From Malacoraja senta (Eukaryota), in contig CM075995.1 in the NCBI GenBank assembly GCA_038087875.1, positions 2,544,001-2,608,000 of the forward strand: DNA of 64,000 nucleotides, written 5' to 3'. Below the pieces are notes generated by a model, which saw nothing but the letters and a program-made list of their open reading frames with translations, made no database searches and was not told the DNA's origin. The position numbers and the translations under genes are program-made. Every line of letters starts with the position of its first letter. Position 1 is the first letter of the stretch. This document shows, piece by piece, positions 2,064-58,296 of this stretch.

Positions 2064-2550
2064 TGACACATGACAATGAACTAAACTAAACTAAATGGAA
2101 AATCATTCTCGACCTTTTCATCCAAACTATTGCACTATCTTAATCCTTCCTCTGATCTTCAAAGATCCTTCCTTCGAGGGGGCTCCCCCCCTCCTTTCCT
2201 TATCTGCACAGTGGTTTGGCAATATCATCTAAAAATACAGCGTCAGCTTCCACATGCATATTCTGTCTCCAAATCATCCCCTACCACTGTCTCCCCTATT
2301 CTTGTACCTGTCCTACACACTGATTTGCAACTTTTATTTTGTTTTCAACTCCTTTACTCTCTTTCTTGGTTTGGGGACAGTTCCATCCAAGACCGCAAGA
2401 AAATGAAGTGTGAAAACGCACACCTCCAGATTCAGGGACAGTTTCTTCTCAGCTGTTATCAAGAAACTGAATCATCCTACCACAACCAGAGAGCAGTCCT
2501 GAACTACTATCTACCTCACTGGTGACCCTTGGACTATCCTTGATCGGACT

Positions 2551-5500
2551 AGAGCGGCTCCTCGTTTGAACTACGTAAAACACCATGGATTGCAATCACA
2601 TTACTGATACTGAATAGAATCTCTAACAACCCACTACTGGAAATATCGGACCAGACTTTTCCTGAGCACTGGACTACACCTTTACTTCTAGAAAACACCT
2701 TCGAAGACCGGGTGAGTTTGTTCCAATTTGTTATTCAGTCATCTTGTATGTCTACAGCAATGGAAGGGAGAATCCTGACTAAAATTAATTTAAGACCAAT
2801 GACTTATTCTTTCATAATTATCATGCTTGCTGGATACGTAGCATTAAATCCCGGCCTTTACCAACCCAAATACCCGTGCATGGTGTGCAGCAAGGCAGTG
2901 GTCAACAGGCAATAGAATGTGAGGAATGTGACTCGTGGTTTCACACAAACTGTATTGGCATGAATGAACACATTTATAACGTGCTTGTCGAGCATCTGTC
3001 GTACTCATGGGTGTGCTGCAACTGTGGGCTCCCCAATTTTGATTCTTCATTTTTTTAGCCACGCAAGCATTAATTTGTCAAACAGCTTAGAATATCTCAA
3101 CATATCTGCAGACTCTGACGTTGTACCTAGTCTTGACTCAGCTTCACCTATCCCTAGGACATCTAGTCCGATAGTAGACCGTGATCAGCACGAGTCTGAA
3201 AAAAGCAAACACGGTGGTAATAAAAACTCCGGGGCCAAGTCGAAGCCTAAGAGGATGAAGTTTGGTCATAGTAAACAAGAAACTTTTAACATTCTTAATC
3301 TCAATTGCCAGAGCATTAGAGCAAAGAAGGCAGAATTCCAGGCTCTTATAGACCAGGAAAACCCAGACATAATAATCGGTACAGAATCTTGGTTGAACAA
3401 AGACATTGCCGCAGGTGACATTTTTCCAACATTCTACCAGGTGTTTAGAAAAGACAGGAAAGGGGACTCTCGTGGGGTTCTATTCATCGCTATTTGTATA
3501 TTGCTACTGAAGAAAAAGATCTTGATGCAAACTGCGAGGTGCTGTGGGTTAGCATTCATATAAAGGGGCTAAAGCCTACATACATCAGGGCATTTTACCG
3601 CCCTCCATCGTCAGGACAGGAACATTTAAGAGAACTTGAAGCTTCTTTATCCATGATTCCGAAATCTGCTTCTGTATGGCTACTCTGCTATTTTAATCTC
3701 CCTGATATAGACTGGTCCAGCAATTCTCTTCGTACTGGGGGAAGAAATACCGCATGTTGCAAGATTATGTTGGATTTGGCCAATGATTTCAACCTCACTC
3801 AAATGGTTGATAAGCCCACTAGAGACAGAAATATACTTGACGTGTTTTGTCAGCCATCCCTCCTTTGTAGAAAGTTGCAATGTGACATCAGGCATAAGGG
3901 ACCATGATGCTGTTATTTTCTAAGCCAAGATGACAGCCAAAGCAGACCACTGAGAAGGAAGATTTTCCTCTACAAAAAGGCAGATTTCTCTTCCATAGAT
4001 GAACATATCAGAATTTAATGAGAAATTAACAGGAGATTATGTGGCAGCAACAGACATAAACACGCTGTGTTTAGATTTTAAACAAGTTCTTGTCAGGGCC
4101 ATGGACTGTTTTATTCCTTCAAAAATGTGTTCCATCAGATATAATTTACCGTGGGTAAATTCATCAATTAGGCAATTAAGAAAAAACAAAGGCTTTATAA
4201 TAGAGCAAGAAAATCTGGGTCAACTTCCCCATGGACAGATTTTAAGAAATGTCGGCGTTCAATTGACAGACAAATCAGGAAAGCGCATCAAGAATACATC
4301 CATAGGTACACAAAAATGCTGGAGAAACTCAGCGGGTGCAGCAGCATCTATGGAGCAAAGGAAATAGGCAACGTTTCGGGCTGAAACCCTTCTTCAAACT
4401 GATAGGGGGTGGGGAGAAGAAAGGAAAAAAGGTGGAGGAGGAGCCCGAGGGCTGGGGGATGGGAGGAGACAACCAGAGGGCTGATGAAGGGGAGGAGACA
4501 GCAAGGGCTAGCAAAATTGAGAGAATTCAATGTTCATGCCCCCAGGATGTAGACTGCCCAAGCAGAATATGAAGTGCATTTCCTCCAATTTCCGGTGTTG
4601 ACACAAAGCCTTTCTGGAATTACATCAAGAAAATGAGCCAGGAAGTATTTGGCATCTCAAGCCTTACATCGATGGGGCGGACAGTTTCTTTGGCAGCAGA
4701 CAAGGCCGAAGTGTTAAACCAGCAGTTTTGTTTGTTTTTTACTGAAGAAAACCTAGATGAATTCCCGTCATTGAACTCACAACAAACTCCAAAAATTGCA
4801 GATCTTAAGGTAACAATGAACGGGATGCAGAAATTATTGGAAGAAATAAAACCAAAGAAGGCATCAGGGCCAGACCAGATACCAGCCAGTTTTAAAGAAT
4901 TGTGTCACAAGCTTAGCTCCAGTCTTCCAAAAGATGTTTCAAAAGTCTGTGGTTTGTGGAGAACTCCCAGAAGATTGGCTGAATGCTAACATTTTCCCCA
5001 TCTATAAAAAAGGAGATAGGATAAATCCTGCAAATTATCGCCCAGTTCCACTTACCTCCATACCATGATTCTCGAACATATAGTCCACCGACATATTATG
5101 GACCATATTGACTTCCACATATTAACAAACCACCAACATGGCTTTAGACAGGGTCGATCATGTGAAACCCTACTGGCGGGACTCATCGATGATCTAGCCA
5201 GGTCACTCGATAACAAGGGTCAGACTGACCTGATTATATTAGATTATATCAGTAAGGCTTTTGATAAGGTTCCCCATAAGCGGCTCCTGTACAAGCTCAA
5301 CCATGTAGGAATAGACGGCAACCTCTTAAAATGGATTGAGATCTTTTTGACAAGGAGACACCAGCGAGTTCTCTTGGAGGGAGAGACGTCTATTGAAACT
5401 TCTGTGACATCAGGTGTACCACAGGGGACTGTCATGGGTCCATTGCTCTTCCTACTGTATATCAATGACATTTCAAATGCAGGTTCGTCCAGAGTTCAAC

Positions 5501-6409
5501 TCTTCGCAGATGATGCCATCATTTATAGAGAGATTAAAACACCAGAAGGCAGCTTGTCCTTACAGAAGGATCTGGATGCTCTCTGTGAGTGGGGAAAAAC
5601 CTGGCAGATGTCATTCAATACAACCAAATGTCATACCATGCATGTCTCACACAAGACTAAACCACTTTTATCGGAATACAACATGGGTAGCCATACATTG
5701 CTTGCTGTCGACCATCACCCATATCTAGGAGTCGAATTAAGCAAAGATTTAAGTTGGGCGACGCATATTAGTCAAGTGTCTAACAAAGCAAATAGAACTC
5801 TCGGCCTACTCAAAAGAAATGTTCACGCATGTAGTACATCCGTCAAAGAGAATGCCTACAAGTCCTTGGTCAGGCCCAAATTGGAGTATTGTGGAGCCGT
5901 ATGGGATCCTTTCAACAACAACAACAAGATCACCCTAGAGAAAGTACAACGCCGAGCAGCCCGCTTTGTATGTAATGACTACAAGCGCAAATCAAGCGTG
6001 AATAATATGCTGACTTCCCTCGGATGGGATACCCTAGAGCTCCGCAAAATCAGGCTAAGACTTATTGCAATTTACAGAGATTCACAAAATCAAATCTCCC
6101 GTCATCCCAGAGCACCAACTGCTGTGAAACAAGACAAAATAACGGTCCCTACATCATCAACTCCCTAAATTTCAATAAACGTTGCTACCAATATTCCCTT
6201 TACCCAAGGACGATAAGGGAATGGAATATGTTACCACCCCTCACACGTGCTGCTCCCGATGTTGTCATTTAAAAAGGGGATTGAGCAACTAGATCTCCTC
6301 AACTTGGTCAAAAAGGCCCACTTCAAAATGTAATCACTACTCTACTCACTCCGACCTGCACAAGATAACCACTGATGAGGTGTTTGCGCAGTAATCAACC
6401 AGAACCAGA
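2551..6409 (+). mobile_element. Near-full-length degenerate CR1-group LINE of invertebrate type: 2A-like motif, PHD finger, APE endonuclease, RT
   Basis: PHD CMVC..CEEC..HTNC..WVCCNC. EN motifs LNCQSIRAK, IGTESWL, FYRPP. RT motifs QHGF, KAFDKV, GVPQGTVMGP, FADD (ORF 5065-6168). (AACCAG)n tail. 3-bp duplication 'act' at 2548-2550 and 6410-6412. Several frameshifts. Confidence 0.9.
4304..4600 (-). mobile_element. Penelope-like terminal fragment nested in the PHD LINE, with a variant hammerhead motif at about 4366-4400
   Basis: Reverse complement reads ttgaagaagggtttcagcccgaaacgttgcc and includes the end of the GIY-YIG ORF; homologous to 58627-59388. Confidence 0.8.
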
Positions 6410-6447
6410 ACTTTGCTGGCTTTACCTTGCACTAAACATTATTCCCT

Positions 6448-13086: not shown

Positions 13087-13936
13087 CAATCAATCAATCA
13101 ATCAATCAATCAAAGACTTTATTGTCATTCAGAAATACACCAATAAATGCAAGTCTGAACGAAATTTCGTTGCATCTGGCTCCCCATGCAACATAAAATA
13201 ACAAAAGGATAAAATAGATAAAAAGATAAAATAGATAAAAAGATAAAATAGATAATACCGGCGACACATTACATGGAATTCAAGAGTCTGATGGCTCGGG
13301 GGAAGAAGCTGTTGCAAAACCTGGCCGTTCTGCTCCTTATACTACGATACCTTTTGCCCGAGGGCAGCAGAGTGAACAGTCCATGATGGAGATGTGTGGG
13401 GTCCTTTATAATACTGTTGGCCTTGGGCAAGCAACGTTTGCACGCAATGTCCCGGATTGAAGGAAGAGAAGTCCCGATGATTTTTTCAGCCGTCCTCACC
13501 ACTCTCTGCACGGACTTCCAGTCGGAGGCTTTACAGTCCCCAAACCAGACAGAGATGCAGCTGGTCAAAATGTTCTCTATGGTGCCCCTGTAGATTGTGG
13601 TGAGGACGGGATGGGGGAGGTGAGCTCTTCTCATCCGGCGCAGAAAGTGCAAACGCTGCTGCGCTCTCTTAACTAGTGATGTGATGTTTTGTGACCACGT
13701 CAGACTGTTCGTGATCTGCACCCCCAGGAACTTAGTGCTACTGACCAACTCCATATCGATGTCATTTATGTGAAGTGGTGTGTGACTGTGCCGATTTTTT
13801 CTGAAGTCAACGATGACCTCCTTTGTTTTGTCAACATTCAGGATCAGATTGTTCGTGTTGCACCAGTCCACCAGTTGTTTCACCTCCTCCTTGTAAGCCA
13901 GTTCATTGTCGTCCCGGATAAGGCCCACCACTGTTG
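13087..13936 (-). mobile_element. 5'-truncated Rex1/Babar LINE
   Basis: ORF 13269-13985 (TTVVGLI...KFLGV...AQQRLHFLRR...SFFPRAIRLLN); (ATTG)n tail; probable TSD tagcat at 13081-13086 and 13937-13942. Confidence 0.88.
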
Positions 13937-14424
13937 TAGCATGTATTGAGGTCAGTGAGGGCATGTTCCAGTCATACAAGCTCATGGGAAAGACAAAGAG
14001 AAACTGATTAAACTGGGAAAAGCTTGCAGGAAATTCTATTCCAACTCCTGAAGGAAACCATACAAGTTCCGAGGGATTTGATAACTAATAAACAGTTACT
14101 CCCACTCTTAAATTTGATGACCAGAGACATCCTCAACTCTCAGGAGCGCAAGTTGCTCTCTTTTGAAGGACAGTAATGAATACATATTTACCATATGGCT
14201 GGTGAATCTTTTTTTCAGCCGGTCAATGACTGACTGAAAACAAATACTTCCTGGCACCTAACCAAACTGTGTGCTATCACGCTTAACACGATGCAACCAA
14301 GATTTTGAAGAATCAGTCTCTGCAGATAAGAAAGATTATATCCAGTTCGCAATCCGCATGGTGAGGATTGCATGAATCAGCACAACATTGGACTGAATGA
14401 AATGCCGCAAAAATATCTATATAA

Positions 14425-35553: not shown

Positions 35554-38500
35554 GGTAACAATCTCGGGATTACTGCCTGTGCCACGCGACAGTGAGAGTA
35601 GGAATGGAGCGAGGTGGAGGATAAATGCGTGGCTGAAGGACTGGTGCAGAAGGCAGGGATTCAAATTTCTGGATCATTGGGACCTCTTTTGTGGAAGGTT
35701 CGACCTGTACAAAAAGGATGGGTTGCACTTGAACCTGAGGGGGACCGATATCCTGGCGGGGAGATCTGCAAAGGCTACTGGGGAGACTTTAAACAAGAAT
35801 GGTTGGGGGGAGGGACTCAAATAGAGAATGCTATTAGACAGTGTGTGAGGCAGGAGGCAGAGAAGGAAAGCACTCAGACCCAACATGTAGGGGGGGGAGA
35901 AGAAAACAATAATAAACAGAGAATAAGAGGTGGTGGGGTTCTTAAATGGGTGAGCAGAGAAACAGAGGGGTGTAAAATGCGGGCGGAAGCAATAGGTAGC
36001 AAGGTGAAAAGTAAAAGTGGCAGGCAGACAAATCCAGGGCAAAAATCAAAAAGGGCCACTTTTCAACATAATTGTATAAGGGGTAAGAGCGTTGTAAAAA
36101 CAAGCCTGAAAGCATTGTGTCTCAATGCAAGGAGCATTCGTAATAAGGTGGATGAGTTGAACGTGCAGATAGCAATTAATGATTATGATATAGTTGGGAT
36201 CACGGAGACATGGCTCCAGGGTGACCAAGGCTGGGAGCTGAACATCCAGGGATATTCAATATTCAGGAGGGATAGAGAGAAAGGAAAAGGAGGTGGGGTA
36301 GCGTTGCTGGTTAGAGAGGAGATTAACGCAGTGGAAAGGAAGGACATTAGCTTGGAGGATGTGGAATCGGTATGGGTAGAGCTGCGAAACACTAAGGGGC
36401 AGAAAACGCTCGTGGGTGTTGTGTACAGGCCACCTAGCAGTAGTAGTGAAGTTGGGATTGGCATCAAACAGGAAATTAGAAATGCGTGCAACAAAGGCAA
36501 AACAGTTATAATGGGTGACTTCAATCTACATATAGATTGGGGGAATCAAATTGGCAGGGGTGCTGAGGAAGAGGATTTCTTGGAATGTATGCGGGATAGT
36601 TATCTAAACCAACATGTAGAGGAACCAACGAGAGAGCAGGCTATTCTAGACTGGGTATTGAGTAATGAGGAAGGGTTAGTTAGCAGTCTTGTTGTGCGTG
36701 CCCCCTTGGGCAAGAGTGACCATAATATGGTTGAGTTCTTCATTAGGATGGAGAGTGACATTGTTAATTCAGAAACAACGGTTGTGAACTTAAAGAAAGG
36801 TAACTTTGAGGGTATGAGATGTGAATTGGCCAAGATTGACTGGCAATTAGTTCTAAAAGGGTTGACGGTGGATATGCAATGGAAGGCATTTAAAGACTGC
36901 ATGGATGAACTACAAAAATTGTTCATCCCAGTTTGGCAAAAGAATAAATCAGGGAAGGTAGTGCATCCGTGGATAACAAGGGAAATCAGGGATAGTATCA
37001 AAGCAAAAGATGATGCGTACAAATTAGCCAGAAAAAGCAGCATACCGGAGGACTGGGAGAAATTCAGAGACCAGCAGAGGAGGACAAAGGGCTTAATTAG
37101 GAAAGGGAAAATAGATTATGAAAGGAAACTGGCAGGGAACATAAAAACTGATGGCAAACGTTTTTATAGATATGTGAAGAGAAAGAGATTAGTTAAAACA
37201 AATGTAGGTCCCTTGCAGTCAGAAACAGGTGAATTGATCATGGGGAACAAGGTTATGGCGGACCAATTGAATAACTACTTTGGTTCCGTCTTCACTAAGG
37301 AAGACATAAATAATCTGCCGGAAATAGCAGGGGGCCGCGGGTCAAAGGAGATGGAGGAACTGAGTGAAATCCAGGTTAGTCGGGAAGTGGTGTTGGGTAA
37401 ATTGAATGGATTAAAGGCCGATAAATCACCAGGGCCAGATAGGCTGCATCCCAGAGTATTGAAGGAAGTAGCTCCAGAAATAGTGGATGCATTAGTGATA
37501 ATTTTTCAAAACTCTTTAGATTCTGGAGTAGTTCCTGAGGATTGGAGAGTAGCAAACGTAACCCCACTTTTTAAGAAGGGAGGGAGAGAGAAAACGTGGA
37601 ATTACAGACCAGTTAGTCTAACATCGGTAGTGGGGAAACTGCTAGAGTCAGTTATTAAAGATGGGATAGCAGCACATTTGGAAAGTGGTGAAATCATTGG
37701 ACAAAGTCAGCATGGATTTACGAAAGGTAAATCGTGTCTGACGAATCTTATAGAATTTTTCGAGGATGTAACTAGTCGAGTGGATAGGGGAGAACCAGTG
37801 GATGTGTTGTATCTGGACTTTCAGAAGGCTTTCGACAAGGTACCACATAAGAGATTAGGATACAAACTTAAATCACACGGTATTGGGGGTTCAGTATTGA
37901 TGTGGATAGAGAACTGGCTGGCAAACAGGAAGCAAAGAGTAGGAGTAAACGGGTCATTTTCACAATGGCAGGCAGTGACTAGTGGGGTACCGCAAGGCTC
38001 AGTGCTGGGACCCCAGCTATTTACAATTTATATTAATGACCTGGATGAGGGAATTGAAAGCAACATCTCCAAGTTTGCGGATGACACTAAGCTGGGGGGC
38101 AGTGTTAGCTGTGAGGATGATGCTAGGAGACTGCAAGGTGACTTGGATAGGCTGGGTGAGTGGGCAAATGTTTGGCAGATGCAGTATAATGTGGATAAAT
38201 GTGAGGTTATCCACTTTGGTGGCAAAAACGGGAAGGCGGACTATTATCTAAATGGTGGCCGATTAGGAAATGGGGAGATGCAGCGAGACCTGGGTGTCAT
38301 GGTACACCCGTCATTGAAAGTAGGCATGCAGGTGCAGCAGGCAGTGAAGAAAGCGAATGGTATGTTGGCTTTCATAACAAGAGGATTTGAGTATAGGAGC
38401 AGGGAGGTTCTCCTGCAGTTGTACAGGGTCTTGGTGAGACCACACCTGGAGTATTGCGTACAGTTTTGGTCTCCAAATCTGAGGAAGGATATTATAGCCA

Positions 38501-39009
38501 TAGAGGGAGTGCAGAGAAGGTTCACCAGACTGATTCCTGGGATGTCAGGACTTTCATATGAAGAAAGACTGGATAGACTTGGCTTATACTCGCTAGAATT
38601 TAGGAGATTGAGAGGGGATCTTATAGAAACGTACAAAATTCTTATGGGGTTGGACAGGCTAGATGCAGGAAGATTGTTCCCGATGTTGGGGAAGTCCAGG
38701 ACAAGGGGTCACAGCTTAAGGATAAGGGGGAAATCCTTTAAGACCGAGATGAGAAAAAACTTTTTCACACAGAGAGTGGTGAATCTCTGGGACTCTCTGC
38801 CACAGAGGGTAGTTGAGGCCAGTTCATTGGCTATATTTAAGAGGGAGTTAGATGTGGCCCTTGTGGCTAAGAGGATCAGGGGGTATGGAGAGAAGGCTGG
38901 TACGGGATACTGAGTTGGATGATCAGCCATGATCATATTGAATGGCGGTGCAGGCTCGAAGGGCCGAATGGCCTACTCCTGCACCTATTTTCTATGTATC
39001 TATGTATCT
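35554..39009 (+). mobile_element. 5'-truncated young CR1 LINE: end of ORF1 (SGNH esterase), complete ORF2 and 3' UTR
   Basis: ORF1 remnant ISGLLPV...WCRRQGFKFLDHW...DGLHLN; 3' UTR ending in (TATCTATG)n. Confidence 0.96.
35614..38913 (+). CDS. CR1 ORF2, endonuclease-reverse transcriptase, uninterrupted (true start probably downstream of 35614)
   Basis: 1099-codon ORF. EN motifs LNARSI, GITETWL, GDFN, SDH. RT motifs QHGF, YLDFQKAFDKV, GVPQGSVLGP, FADD. Confidence 0.95.
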   Translation: MEDKCVAEGLVQKAGIQISGSLGPLLWKVRPVQKGWVALEPEGDRYPGGEICKGYWGDFKQEWLGGGTQIENAIRQCVRQEAEKESTQTQHVGGGEENNNKQRIRGGGVLKWVSRETEGCKMRAEAIGSKVKSKSGRQTNPGQKSKRATFQHNCIRGKSVVKTSLKALCLNARSIRNKVDELNVQIAINDYDIVGITETWLQGDQGWELNIQGYSIFRRDREKGKGGGVALLVREEINAVERKDISLEDVESVWVELRNTKGQKTLVGVVYRPPSSSSEVGIGIKQEIRNACNKGKTVIMGDFNLHIDWGNQIGRGAEEEDFLECMRDSYLNQHVEEPTREQAILDWVLSNEEGLVSSLVVRAPLGKSDHNMVEFFIRMESDIVNSETTVVNLKKGNFEGMRCELAKIDWQLVLKGLTVDMQWKAFKDCMDELQKLFIPVWQKNKSGKVVHPWITREIRDSIKAKDDAYKLARKSSIPEDWEKFRDQQRRTKGLIRKGKIDYERKLAGNIKTDGKRFYRYVKRKRLVKTNVGPLQSETGELIMGNKVMADQLNNYFGSVFTKEDINNLPEIAGGRGSKEMEELSEIQVSREVVLGKLNGLKADKSPGPDRLHPRVLKEVAPEIVDALVIIFQNSLDSGVVPEDWRVANVTPLFKKGGREKTWNYRPVSLTSVVGKLLESVIKDGIAAHLESGEIIGQSQHGFTKGKSCLTNLIEFFEDVTSRVDRGEPVDVLYLDFQKAFDKVPHKRLGYKLKSHGIGGSVLMWIENWLANRKQRVGVNGSFSQWQAVTSGVPQGSVLGPQLFTIYINDLDEGIESNISKFADDTKLGGSVSCEDDARRLQGDLDRLGEWANVWQMQYNVDKCEVIHFGGKNGKADYYLNGGRLGNGEMQRDLGVMVHPSLKVGMQVQQAVKKANGMLAFITRGFEYRSREVLLQLYRVLVRPHLEYCVQFWSPNLRKDIIAIEGVQRRFTRLIPGMSGLSYEERLDRLGLYSLEFRRLRGDLIETYKILMGLDRLDAGRLFPMLGKSRTRGHSLRIRGKSFKTEMRKNFFTQRVVNLWDSLPQRVVEASSLAIFKRELDVALVAKRIRGYGEKAGTGY

Positions 39010-56677: not shown

Positions 56678-58296
56678 CAGTGGCTTGCAAAAGTTTTCAT
56701 ATCCCTTGAACTTTTCCACATTTTGTCACGTTACAACCACAAACGTAAATGTATTTTATTGGGATTTTATGTGATAGACCAACACAAAGTGGTGCATAAT
56801 TGTGAAGTGGAAGGAAAATGATACATGGTTTTCAAATTTTTTTACAAATAAAAAACTGAAAAGTGTCGCGTGCAAAAGTATTCAGCCCCCCTGAGTCAAT
56901 ACTTTGTAGAACCACCTTTCGCTGCAATTACAGCTGCAAGTCTTTTGGGGTATGTCTCTACCAGCTTTGCACATCTAGAGACTGACATTTTTGCCCATTC
57001 TTCTTTGCAAAATAGCTCAAGCTCAGTCAGATTGGATGGAGAGCGTCTGTGAACAGCAATTTTCAAGTCTTGCCAGAGATTCTCAATTGGATTTAGGTCT
57101 GGACTTTGACTGGGCCATTCTAACACATGAATATGCTTTGATCTAAACCATTCCATTGTCGCTCTGGCTGTATGTTTAGGGTCGTTGTCCTGCTGGAAGG
57201 TGAACCTCCGCCCCAGTCTCAAGTCTTTTGCAGACTCTTAACAGGTTTTCTTCCAAGATTGCCCTGTATTTGGCTCCATCCATCTTCCCATCAAGTCTGA
57301 CCAGCTTCTCTGTCCCTGCTGAAGAAAAGCATCCCCACAGCATGATGCTGCCACCACCATGTTTCACAGTGGGGATGGTGTGTTCAGGGTGATGTGCAGT
57401 GTTAGGGTTCCGCCACACATAGCGTTTTGCATTTAGGCCAAAAACTTCAATTTTGGTCTCATCTGACCAGAGCACCTTCCTCCACATGTTTTCTGTGTCC
57501 CCCACATGGCTTGTGGCAAACTGCAAACGGGACTTCTTATGGCTTTTTTTCAACAATGGCTTTCTTCTTGCCACTCTTCCATAAAGGTCTGATTTGTGGA
57601 GTGCACGACTAATAGTTGTCCTGTGGACAGATTCTCCCACCTGAGCTGTGGATCTCTGCAGCTCCTCCAGAGTTACCATGGGCCTCTTGGCTGCTTCTCT
57701 GATCAATGCCCTCCTTGCCTGGCCTGTCAGTTTAGGTGGACGGCCATGTCTTGGTAGGTTTGCAGTTGTGCCATACTCTTTCCATTTTCGGATGATGGAT
57801 TGAACAGTGCTCCGTGAGATGTTCAAGGCTTGGGATATTTTTTTTATAACCTAACCCTGCTTTAAACTTCTCCACAACTTTATCCCTGACCTGTCTGGTG
57901 TGTTCCTTGGGCTTCGTGATGTTGTTTGTTCACTAATGTTCTCTAACAAACCTCTGAGGCCTTCACAGAACAGCTGTATTTATACTGAGATTAGATTACA
58001 CACAAGTGGACTCTATTTACTAATTAGGTGACTTCTGAAGGCAATTGGTTGCACTGGATTTTATTTAGGGGTATCAGAGTAAAGGGGGCTGAATACTTTT
58101 GCACGCGACACTTTTCAGTTTTTTATTTGTAAAAAGGTTTGAAAACCATGTATCATTTTCCTTCCACTTCACAATTATGCGCCACTTTGTGTTGGTCTAT
58201 CACATAAAATCCCAATAAAATACATTTACGTTTGTGGTTGTAACGTGACAAAATGTGGAAAAGTTCAAGGGGTATGAATACTTTTGCAAGCCACTG
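56678..58296 (-). mobile_element. Full-length Tc1 DNA transposon (Passport-like, IR/DR type), inserted in a V-SINE (56555-56677 and 58297-58511)
   Basis: About 213-bp TIRs (56678-56890 and 58084-58296) starting CAGTGGCTTGCAAAAGT; TA TSD; 1619 bp. Confidence 0.96.
56896..57917 (-). pseudogene. Tc1 DD34E transposase with ATG>ACG start and two +1 frameshifts
   Basis: KPKEHTRQVRDKVVEKFKAGLGYKK...GRPPK...WSDETK...QQDNDPKH...[11 protein letters not shown]; 34 residues between the second D and E. Confidence 0.93.

Follow-up and report, generated by a model that had tools for sequence, protein, structure and literature searches.

Are the 2A-like sites of LINEs that lack the usual glutamate dead relics, or are they sites that have been tuned down? 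This question, which attaches to the elements described by Odon et al. (2013; PMC3708506), returns at a decayed element of the elasmobranch Malacoraja senta. In the window, i.e., the whole 64,000-nucleotide stretch of DNA that was analyzed, positions 2564-6411 (+) are a dead, 5′-truncated copy of a single-ORF APE-type LINE, with a 2A-like peptide in front of a PHD finger. An earlier note on this DNA proposed that the active ancestor released an N-terminal peptide by ribosomal skipping at this site. This proposal is partly supported: the feature is genuine, but efficient skipping by the ancestor is not established.

Organization of the Element

The copy probably belongs to an invertebrate-type branch of the CR1 group. 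Its similarity to other copies begins at 2564 and stops at 6411. The 5′ junction, previously placed at 2551/2553, has therefore to be moved downstream: positions 2551-2563 (+) are a 13-nt filler outside the family sequence, which is missing from the aligned copies and from every other fetched locus. The ACT at 2548-2550 (+) recurs at 6410-6412 and represents no more than a target duplication of 3 bp or microhomology. The LINE was inserted into a host repeat, the empty form of which is found at about 8495. LINEs of the CR1 clade have a 3′ microsatellite tail, and their target duplication is absent or very short. The (CAGAAC)n tail of the 3′ UTR (6334-6411, +), which is of identical type at 14 other loci, together with a duplication of at most ACT, fits this trait. 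A hairpin at the 3′ end had no significance (z of 0.17 in the window copy and of -1.6 in locus L044).

In this family, a single ORF encodes, in this order, a 102-aa leader, the 2A-like core, the PHD finger, the endonuclease and the reverse transcriptase (RT). The leader (2564-2855, +) runs from MAHAQFELRK to NPG in full-length copies. Longer copies reveal what is missing from the window copy: the start codon, 14 nt at the beginning of the ORF, and 160 nt or more of 5′ UTR. Near the N-terminus lies the signal-peptide-like hydrophobic core WIAITLLIL (2586-2612, +; KD9 of 2.79), and further downstream a mid-leader motif, HW[TS]xP...VS[SL]F[HQ] (2664-2729, +), was found by alignment of 13 leaders and an HMM search of 139 leaders. 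The 2A-like peptide (2799-2858, +) consists of a hydrophobic helix and the core, which reads G-Y-V-A-L-N-P-G-L at 2832-2858 and G-D-V-A-L-N-P-G-P in other copies. As described before, the frame is open from stop to stop (2553-2915; ...FIIIMLAGYVALNPGL), with LAGYVALNPGL exactly at 2826-2858. The pattern [VI]xxNPG occurs only once among the 127,996 six-frame residues of the window, i.e., in this core.

The C4HC3 PHD finger (2877-3025, +) begins six codons after the core. The profile check suggested in the earlier note came out clearly, as PF00628 was matched on the shifted frame alone at 30 bits, above the cut-off of 24 (E=5.4e-07); the C4HC3 pattern is present, and AlphaFold gives the domain a pLDDT of about 90. 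The frameshift noted in the PHD finger is a 7-nt deletion after 2898, private to the window copy among the aligned copies; an extra T at 3050-3056, slightly beyond the stretch covered by the earlier note, restores the frame. Endonuclease and RT were both found downstream, as reported. The frameshifted APE-type endonuclease (3290-3905, +) aligns with the relative P0002 in tblastn and matches PF03372 weakly and PF14529 with E=2e-05, which falls below the cut-off of that profile. An unrelated host repeat (4304-4599) was inserted later into the LINE; alignments to other copies are gapped here and pick up again at 4600. The RT and C-terminal region (4600-6333, +) ends with AHFKM and a stop codon and has its RVT_1 match inside the ORF 5020-6168 (PF00078, E=1.3e-27). 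With an APE endonuclease upstream of the RT in one ORF, and with dispersed copies that have a common 3′ end and variable 5′ truncation, the element is a LINE.

At locus L017, no + strand ORF of more than 72 aa was found within about 880 nt upstream of the ATG. Neither a longer 5′ end nor an upstream ORF1 was found; one 94-nt match lies elsewhere. The contig of P0002 has about 540 nt outside the ORF. An out-of-frame ATG in a strong context, located 8 nt before the main ATG, opens a uORF of 21 codons that overlaps the main ORF (L017:1479-1544, and 7 other loci checked); it could form a second brake on translation.

Other mobile elements are scattered over the window. Host CR1 fragments, rearranged and on both strands, lie at 423-2060, upstream of the LINE. 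At 35602-38913 (+), an unbroken frame of 1103 aa encodes a host-type CR1 ORF2 (endonuclease and RT) of a young and perhaps intact element. A 271-aa RT C-terminal fragment at 13269-14084 (-) has what we take to be a Rex1-like look, and a 224-aa frame at 57176-57850 (-) presumably resembles a Tc1/mariner transposase.

The Core Motif in Other Copies

The 5′ part of the LINE has 34 genomic matches, and a genome search with the 3′ end returned 361 candidates at first look; the 40 that were scored are 91-95% identical to the window. Fifteen 3′ ends differ from the column majority by a median of 2.5%. The core is covered at 20 distinct places in the genome; the codon of the Asp encodes D at seven of them, E at eight, N at four and Y at one, the last being the window. 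A raw majority (8/20) would assign Glu to this position; this was rejected, since the E copies share flanks and descend from one insertion. The E and N copies all stem from a single insertion amplified with its flanks. Three GAC copies belong to the same amplified set, and GAC is one step away from GAA and from AAC. The remaining three independent insertions have D. Since the E and N copies count as one amplified insertion, four of the five independent insertions point to D. The final Pro is present at 15 of the 18 covering places (His at 2, Leu at 1), and Ala occupies the usual Glu position in 20/20. A pattern search allowing up to two mismatches retrieved 22 sites, with 20 GCA, 2 GTA and no Glu codons at the Ala position.

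Sequencing runs of seven other organisms contain 25-38% of the sampled words, and those of an eighth organism 4%. Four of these organisms are likely related species, because the flanking host repeat is also present at huge depth. Of the seven organisms whose contigs cover the site, six have GAC or GAT as the Asp codon and the seventh has the amplified GAA form; in one contig, this codon is altered once more. Where fully readable in this set, the Ala codon shows one change, to Val.

Independent copies, as well as the runs of other organisms, thus have the ancestral Asp and final Pro that had been predicted, and a family consensus, whose lack of D and of the terminal P had been named beforehand as the point of failure, recovered both. 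As judged from its copies, the active family read GDVALNPGP. G-D-(V/I) and N-P-G-P are present in the family, from which the window copy deviates by Y and L. Since the Glu at position -5 is absent, the core is not a canonical class A 2A; with its single substitution, it falls into class X.

The amplified insertion was copied along with 1.5 kb or more of flanking sequence (identity of 93-100%) and is found at about 20 places, mostly on small contigs (L002-L016 and L023-L029; G000 C5931, C685, C316, C173, C1502, C1038, C1547, C4760, C128, C3258, and C15), as a large segmental or tandem repeat unit. A copy at G000 C1:356308124-356309000 (L020/L021) is interrupted by an insertion that lies exactly within the 2A-like helix, after IIML. 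L017 and L018 break off directly after GDVAL, up to which the L017 ORF is open from the ATG for 99 codons.

Relatives and Phylogeny

Relatives were collected with the endonuclease-RT part only, and the best 120 of 3,234 matches were analyzed. Among these, 61 have a PHD finger, and in 59 of the 61 it is preceded within 25 aa by [NH]PG and then P. Asp is present in 55 of these 59 motif-bearing relatives from the best 120 of 3,234; the Gly position is G in 44 and N in 5, and the Glu position is E in 24, Q in 13, H in 11, N in 6, A in 3 and S in 2. A set selected by the N-terminus (best 150 of 3,356 matches) was concordant (119/125). P0002 is a single ORF of 1171 aa with leader, core, PHD, endonuclease and RT. 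Two intact relatives, 47% identical over leader and PHD, have the cores NDIATNPGP and NDIALNPGP, and the leader of the window family is homologous to those of P0001, P0002, P0137, and P0294. Over the long term, both the helix-D-x-x-x-NPGP unit and a hydrophobic N-terminus have thus been conserved. In line with the earlier note, the motif is a homologue of the 2A-like sites in LINEs of the CR1 group. By eye, the RT resembles those of CR1-12_BF and STR-24_SP in the available supplement of PMC3708506, with about 40/67 residues shared with P0002.

The RT is 65.6% identical to P0002/P0009, against 37% to the host CR1 inside the window. In an RT tree for which 69 of 125 rows were kept (56 were dropped for short RT cover or absence of the motif) and which contains no classified references, two elements of the Ala type and one of the Glu type join the window at 0.99, and another Ala-type element is sister at 0.85. 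The Ala is thus old in the branch. It is not a product of decay, since it stands in 20/20 copies and also in intact relatives whose RT is 66% identical; nor did it arise by decay after insertion, since it is fixed in a family that was expanding, with 3′ ends in the hundreds and a divergence of about 2.5%.

Named matches among those listed are from sea cucumber (Holothuria), amphioxus (Branchiostoma) and one bacterial bin. A sea cucumber protein annotated as "Pygopus-like 1" (P0139; KAJ8017921.1) is the leader-2A-PHD start of a LINE of the same clade, with the canonical core GDIESNPGP.

The Leader Peptide

The relatives' leaders of at least 70 aa (n=49) have a median length of 101 aa. By Kyte-Doolittle hydropathy, a hydrophobic core in the first 30 residues is present in 39/49 of them, versus 4/770 starts at internal Met residues and 0/43 mid-leader windows, which suggests that a signal-peptide-like N-terminal core is a clade-wide trait. 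The score used (KD9) is a crude hydrophobicity heuristic; on the same heuristic, a basic n-region (RK) precedes WIAITLLIL as the h-region, and the P0002 leader scores below the signal-like threshold (2.3). The h-region is short, and no good -3/-1 signal-peptidase site was seen by eye. Per 100 aa, the leaders have 1.2 glycosylation sequons and the post-PHD linker has 3.3; as sequons are not enriched in the leaders, a lumenal leader is unsupported. The mid-leader motif is kept across the branch and is common to the sea cucumber members.

Of the hydrophobic segments noted earlier, the N-terminal one is thus confirmed, but none is of membrane-spanning length: KD9 peaks at 2.8 and 2.6, and the best 19-residue window reaches 1.51, so that a transmembrane leader is not supported. 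Over the pre-motif stretch, AlphaFold predicts a helix that ends near -9. In the 49 leaders, the median uncharged run of this helix is 11 residues; none reaches 17, and two reach a KD19 of 1.6. The helix is preceded by a basic patch (202 K/R vs 28 D/E over the 49 leaders). A folded leader domain was rejected, as AlphaFold gives three loose helices (pLDDT 40-73), the PHD alone being confident. Pfam gave no match for the leader, and the Atlas matches were below 0.9 and PHD-driven.

Does the Ala-Type Site Mediate Recoding?

Published assays of natural D[VI]AxNPGP peptides gave mixed results, with Ala-type cores ranging from inactive to 74%, and therefore favor weak or partial recoding over clean skipping. 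A signal sequence located upstream is able to inhibit 2A (PMC2978324), so that the native context matters. Among nine [GN]D[VI]AxNPGP peptides in a Sort-seq table, whose classes are model-based, four are nonskipping, two show falloff only, one falloff with reduction, and two skipping (PMC13405545). Peptides with GDIALNPGP and GDIATNPGP are classed as skipping in the supplement of that study, whilst the two peptides nearest in style (..INILLAGDVASNPGP) are nonskipping, again by the model. Glu14 stacks on rRNA (PMC12846837), and in saturation mutagenesis of P2A and F2A only His reached 0.6 at this position; Asn was one of two tolerated substitutions of the Gly (10.64898/2026.09.24.754024). The class X peptides X2.1 and X5.1 of the same study, with A21, are active, 74% and 39% being given for three peptides, where equating A21 with the Glu site is our own interpretation, the sequences not being visible. 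Crack-17_BF, with E changed to A, had very weak activity only, and among amphioxus CR1 peptides whose cores are nearly canonical several showed no activity, whereas mollusc CR1 relatives were active (PMC3708506). Most retrotransposon 2A-like peptides lowered protein (59% of ORF2p cases), and this reduction was tied to 3-6 Leu at -19 to -10 (PMC13405545). The window family has two Leu there, under this number.

The reading that we tentatively prefer, without giving it the better part of the probability, is that the GDVALNPG-P site of the active family would be a weak, partial StopGo or stall element in front of PHD-EN-RT rather than a clean cut. The hydrophobic N-terminal core would recruit SRP, by which the ribosome would be led to the ER, and the 2A-like helix would make it stall at Gly-Pro. 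In a minority of ribosomes, the leader would be released and synthesis would continue to a cytosolic PHD-EN-RT starting with Pro; the remaining ribosomes would fall off or produce a fusion that does not persist. Overall, the output of the enzyme would be throttled, in an element that probably lacks ORF1. Against this model stand the short h-region without an obvious cleavage site, the low score of P0002 and the scarcity of sequons in the leaders, as well as the exclusive tolerance of His at Glu14, the very weak Crack-17_BF, and the four of nine nonskipping Sort-seq peptides.

Possible, but less probable, is that the site does not recode at all and is read through, the helix-D-x-x-x-NPGP unit being kept as a structural or targeting element, e.g., a second signal-like segment, and being a vestige or a precursor of a 2A. 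The Glu, critical in viral 2As, varies freely in the clade (24/59 E; best 120 of 3,234), many CR1-clade peptides are inactive in vitro (PMC3708506), the basic patch before the helix is like the n-region of a signal, and 2A-like sequences can serve as signal sequences (PMC4981915). However, the invariant NPG-P, the Asp at -7 and a helix that stops near -9 correspond to StopGo geometry, and the active mollusc CR1 relatives also argue against loss of function. Moreover, since the pre-motif helix is too short to span a membrane, an enzyme made by full read-through would have a signal sequence in front of it, and the RT would be misrouted.

Efficient StopGo, by which more than half of the ribosomes would skip, the upstream context offsetting the Ala, and the leader would be a separate small protein replacing ORF1, is improbable. 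The activity of up to 74% among Ala class X peptides and the retention of Ala through a branch with 66% RT identity would suit it, and so would the conserved motif of the leader, as expected of a functional product. Base rates are low, however, with 139/1,969 class X and 43/580 retroelement peptides highly active (10.64898/2026.09.24.754024), and the nearest-looking peptides are nonskipping. The boldest version, in which an invertebrate-derived LINE of sharks or rays would have a functional, helix-tuned Ala-type StopGo that frees an ER-targeted 102-aa leader, equipped with its own conserved motif and replacing ORF1, and so ties retrotransposon translation to the ER membrane, is a long shot.

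It is very improbable that the pre-motif helix is a stop-transfer anchor, yielding an ER-anchored protein with a lumenal leader and a cytosolic PHD-EN-RT and no skipping: a signal-like start followed by a second hydrophobic segment could give such a topology, but the helices fall short of the required length and hydrophobicity (0/49 with 17 uncharged residues, 2/49 with a KD19 of 1.6), and the basic residues are on the would-be lumenal side. Finally, although the window copy by itself fits only 5/8 fixed core positions, chance resemblance through decay can be dismissed, because the core, the sole match in the window, is restored in other copies and present in 59/61 PHD-bearing relatives (best 120 of 3,234).

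Origin of the Family

A marine invertebrate is the probable source of the family, which would have reached an ancestral elasmobranch by horizontal transfer. This is suggested by the RT, which is so much closer to that of P0002/P0009 than to the host CR1, by the sea cucumber and amphioxus among the named matches, and by the small median difference of 2.5% between copies and their column majority. Conversely, 66% identity is too low to serve as proof, and the closest relatives carry no host name. All vertebrate CR1s form one clade (PMC13343379), which the window family does not appear to join. Short motifs of the elasmobranch Zenon and of the little-skate Rex1-12 from the same survey have 3 and 5 genomic occurrences, respectively, with 0 for controls, which marks the genome as that of a shark or ray.

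Comparison with Known Systems

Among CR1-group elements of elasmobranch genomes, the family resembles the canonical vertebrate CR1 and Zenon (PMC13343379) in its type of RT. It differs from the host CR1 by the 37% RT identity mentioned above and from Zenon by the (CAGAAC)n tail, where Zenon has poly-A; membership of Zenon is thereby ruled out. The 5′ motifs of the family were not found in the first 400 characters of each library entry of PMC13343379, which is a weak check, and this CR1-group lineage may be missing from that recent vertebrate survey.

The reduction-class 2A-like peptides (10.64898/2026.06.17.732966; PMC13405545) share with the window family a hydrophobic helix at -19 to -10, the ORF2p context and fish among the hosts, the ORF2p peptides being described as ranging "from algae to fish"; the window family differs in having two Leu only. 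No LINE row in the accessible supplements matched IMLAGD or any of four elasmobranch terms. Class X peptides (10.64898/2026.09.24.754024) likewise have one substitution in (G/H)D(I/V)ExNPGP; many occur in non-LTR elements, and Ala members exist, some of which are active. The window-family peptide is absent from the accessible text of that study, the peptide tables of which could still contain it.

The sea urchin NLR 2A-like signals (Roulston et al., 2016; PMC4981915) couple ER targeting with partial recoding, as proposed here. In that case, the 26-aa 2A is itself the signal, whereas in the LINE the hydrophobic core is a segment of its own, some 80 residues before the 2A-like site. If the leader truly targets the ER, synthesis of a LINE enzyme at the ER would be new biology. 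The literature searched (including PMC4981915, PMC3894237, and PMC12338488, as far as available) held no report of a 2A-LINE in cartilaginous fish or of a signal-like LINE leader, although preprint supplements could list one.

The closest known systems are the elements of Odon et al. (2013; PMC3708506: Crack-17_BF, CR1-1/17/26_BF, STR-24/25/34/35_SP), which likewise have a single ORF, an N-terminal 2A-like core and a PHD between the core and the APE domain. Their Glu position is variable, with E changed to A in Crack-17_BF and CR1-4_NV. The 2A-PHD-APE-RT layout, including cases of Glu-to-Ala change, is therefore already published. Odon et al. state that no such LINE was found in fish, and their leaders are of 40-80 aa rather than 102; in the available text, a signal-like start and a mid-leader motif are not mentioned. 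What is new is the elasmobranch host, which extends this type of LINE to cartilaginous fish, together with an Ala fixed along a lineage and the conserved mid-leader motif. The natural sister peptides with Ala (P0009 and P0002) and with Glu (P0294) form a direct test set for the question whether Glu-less sites in such elements are relics or have been tuned down.
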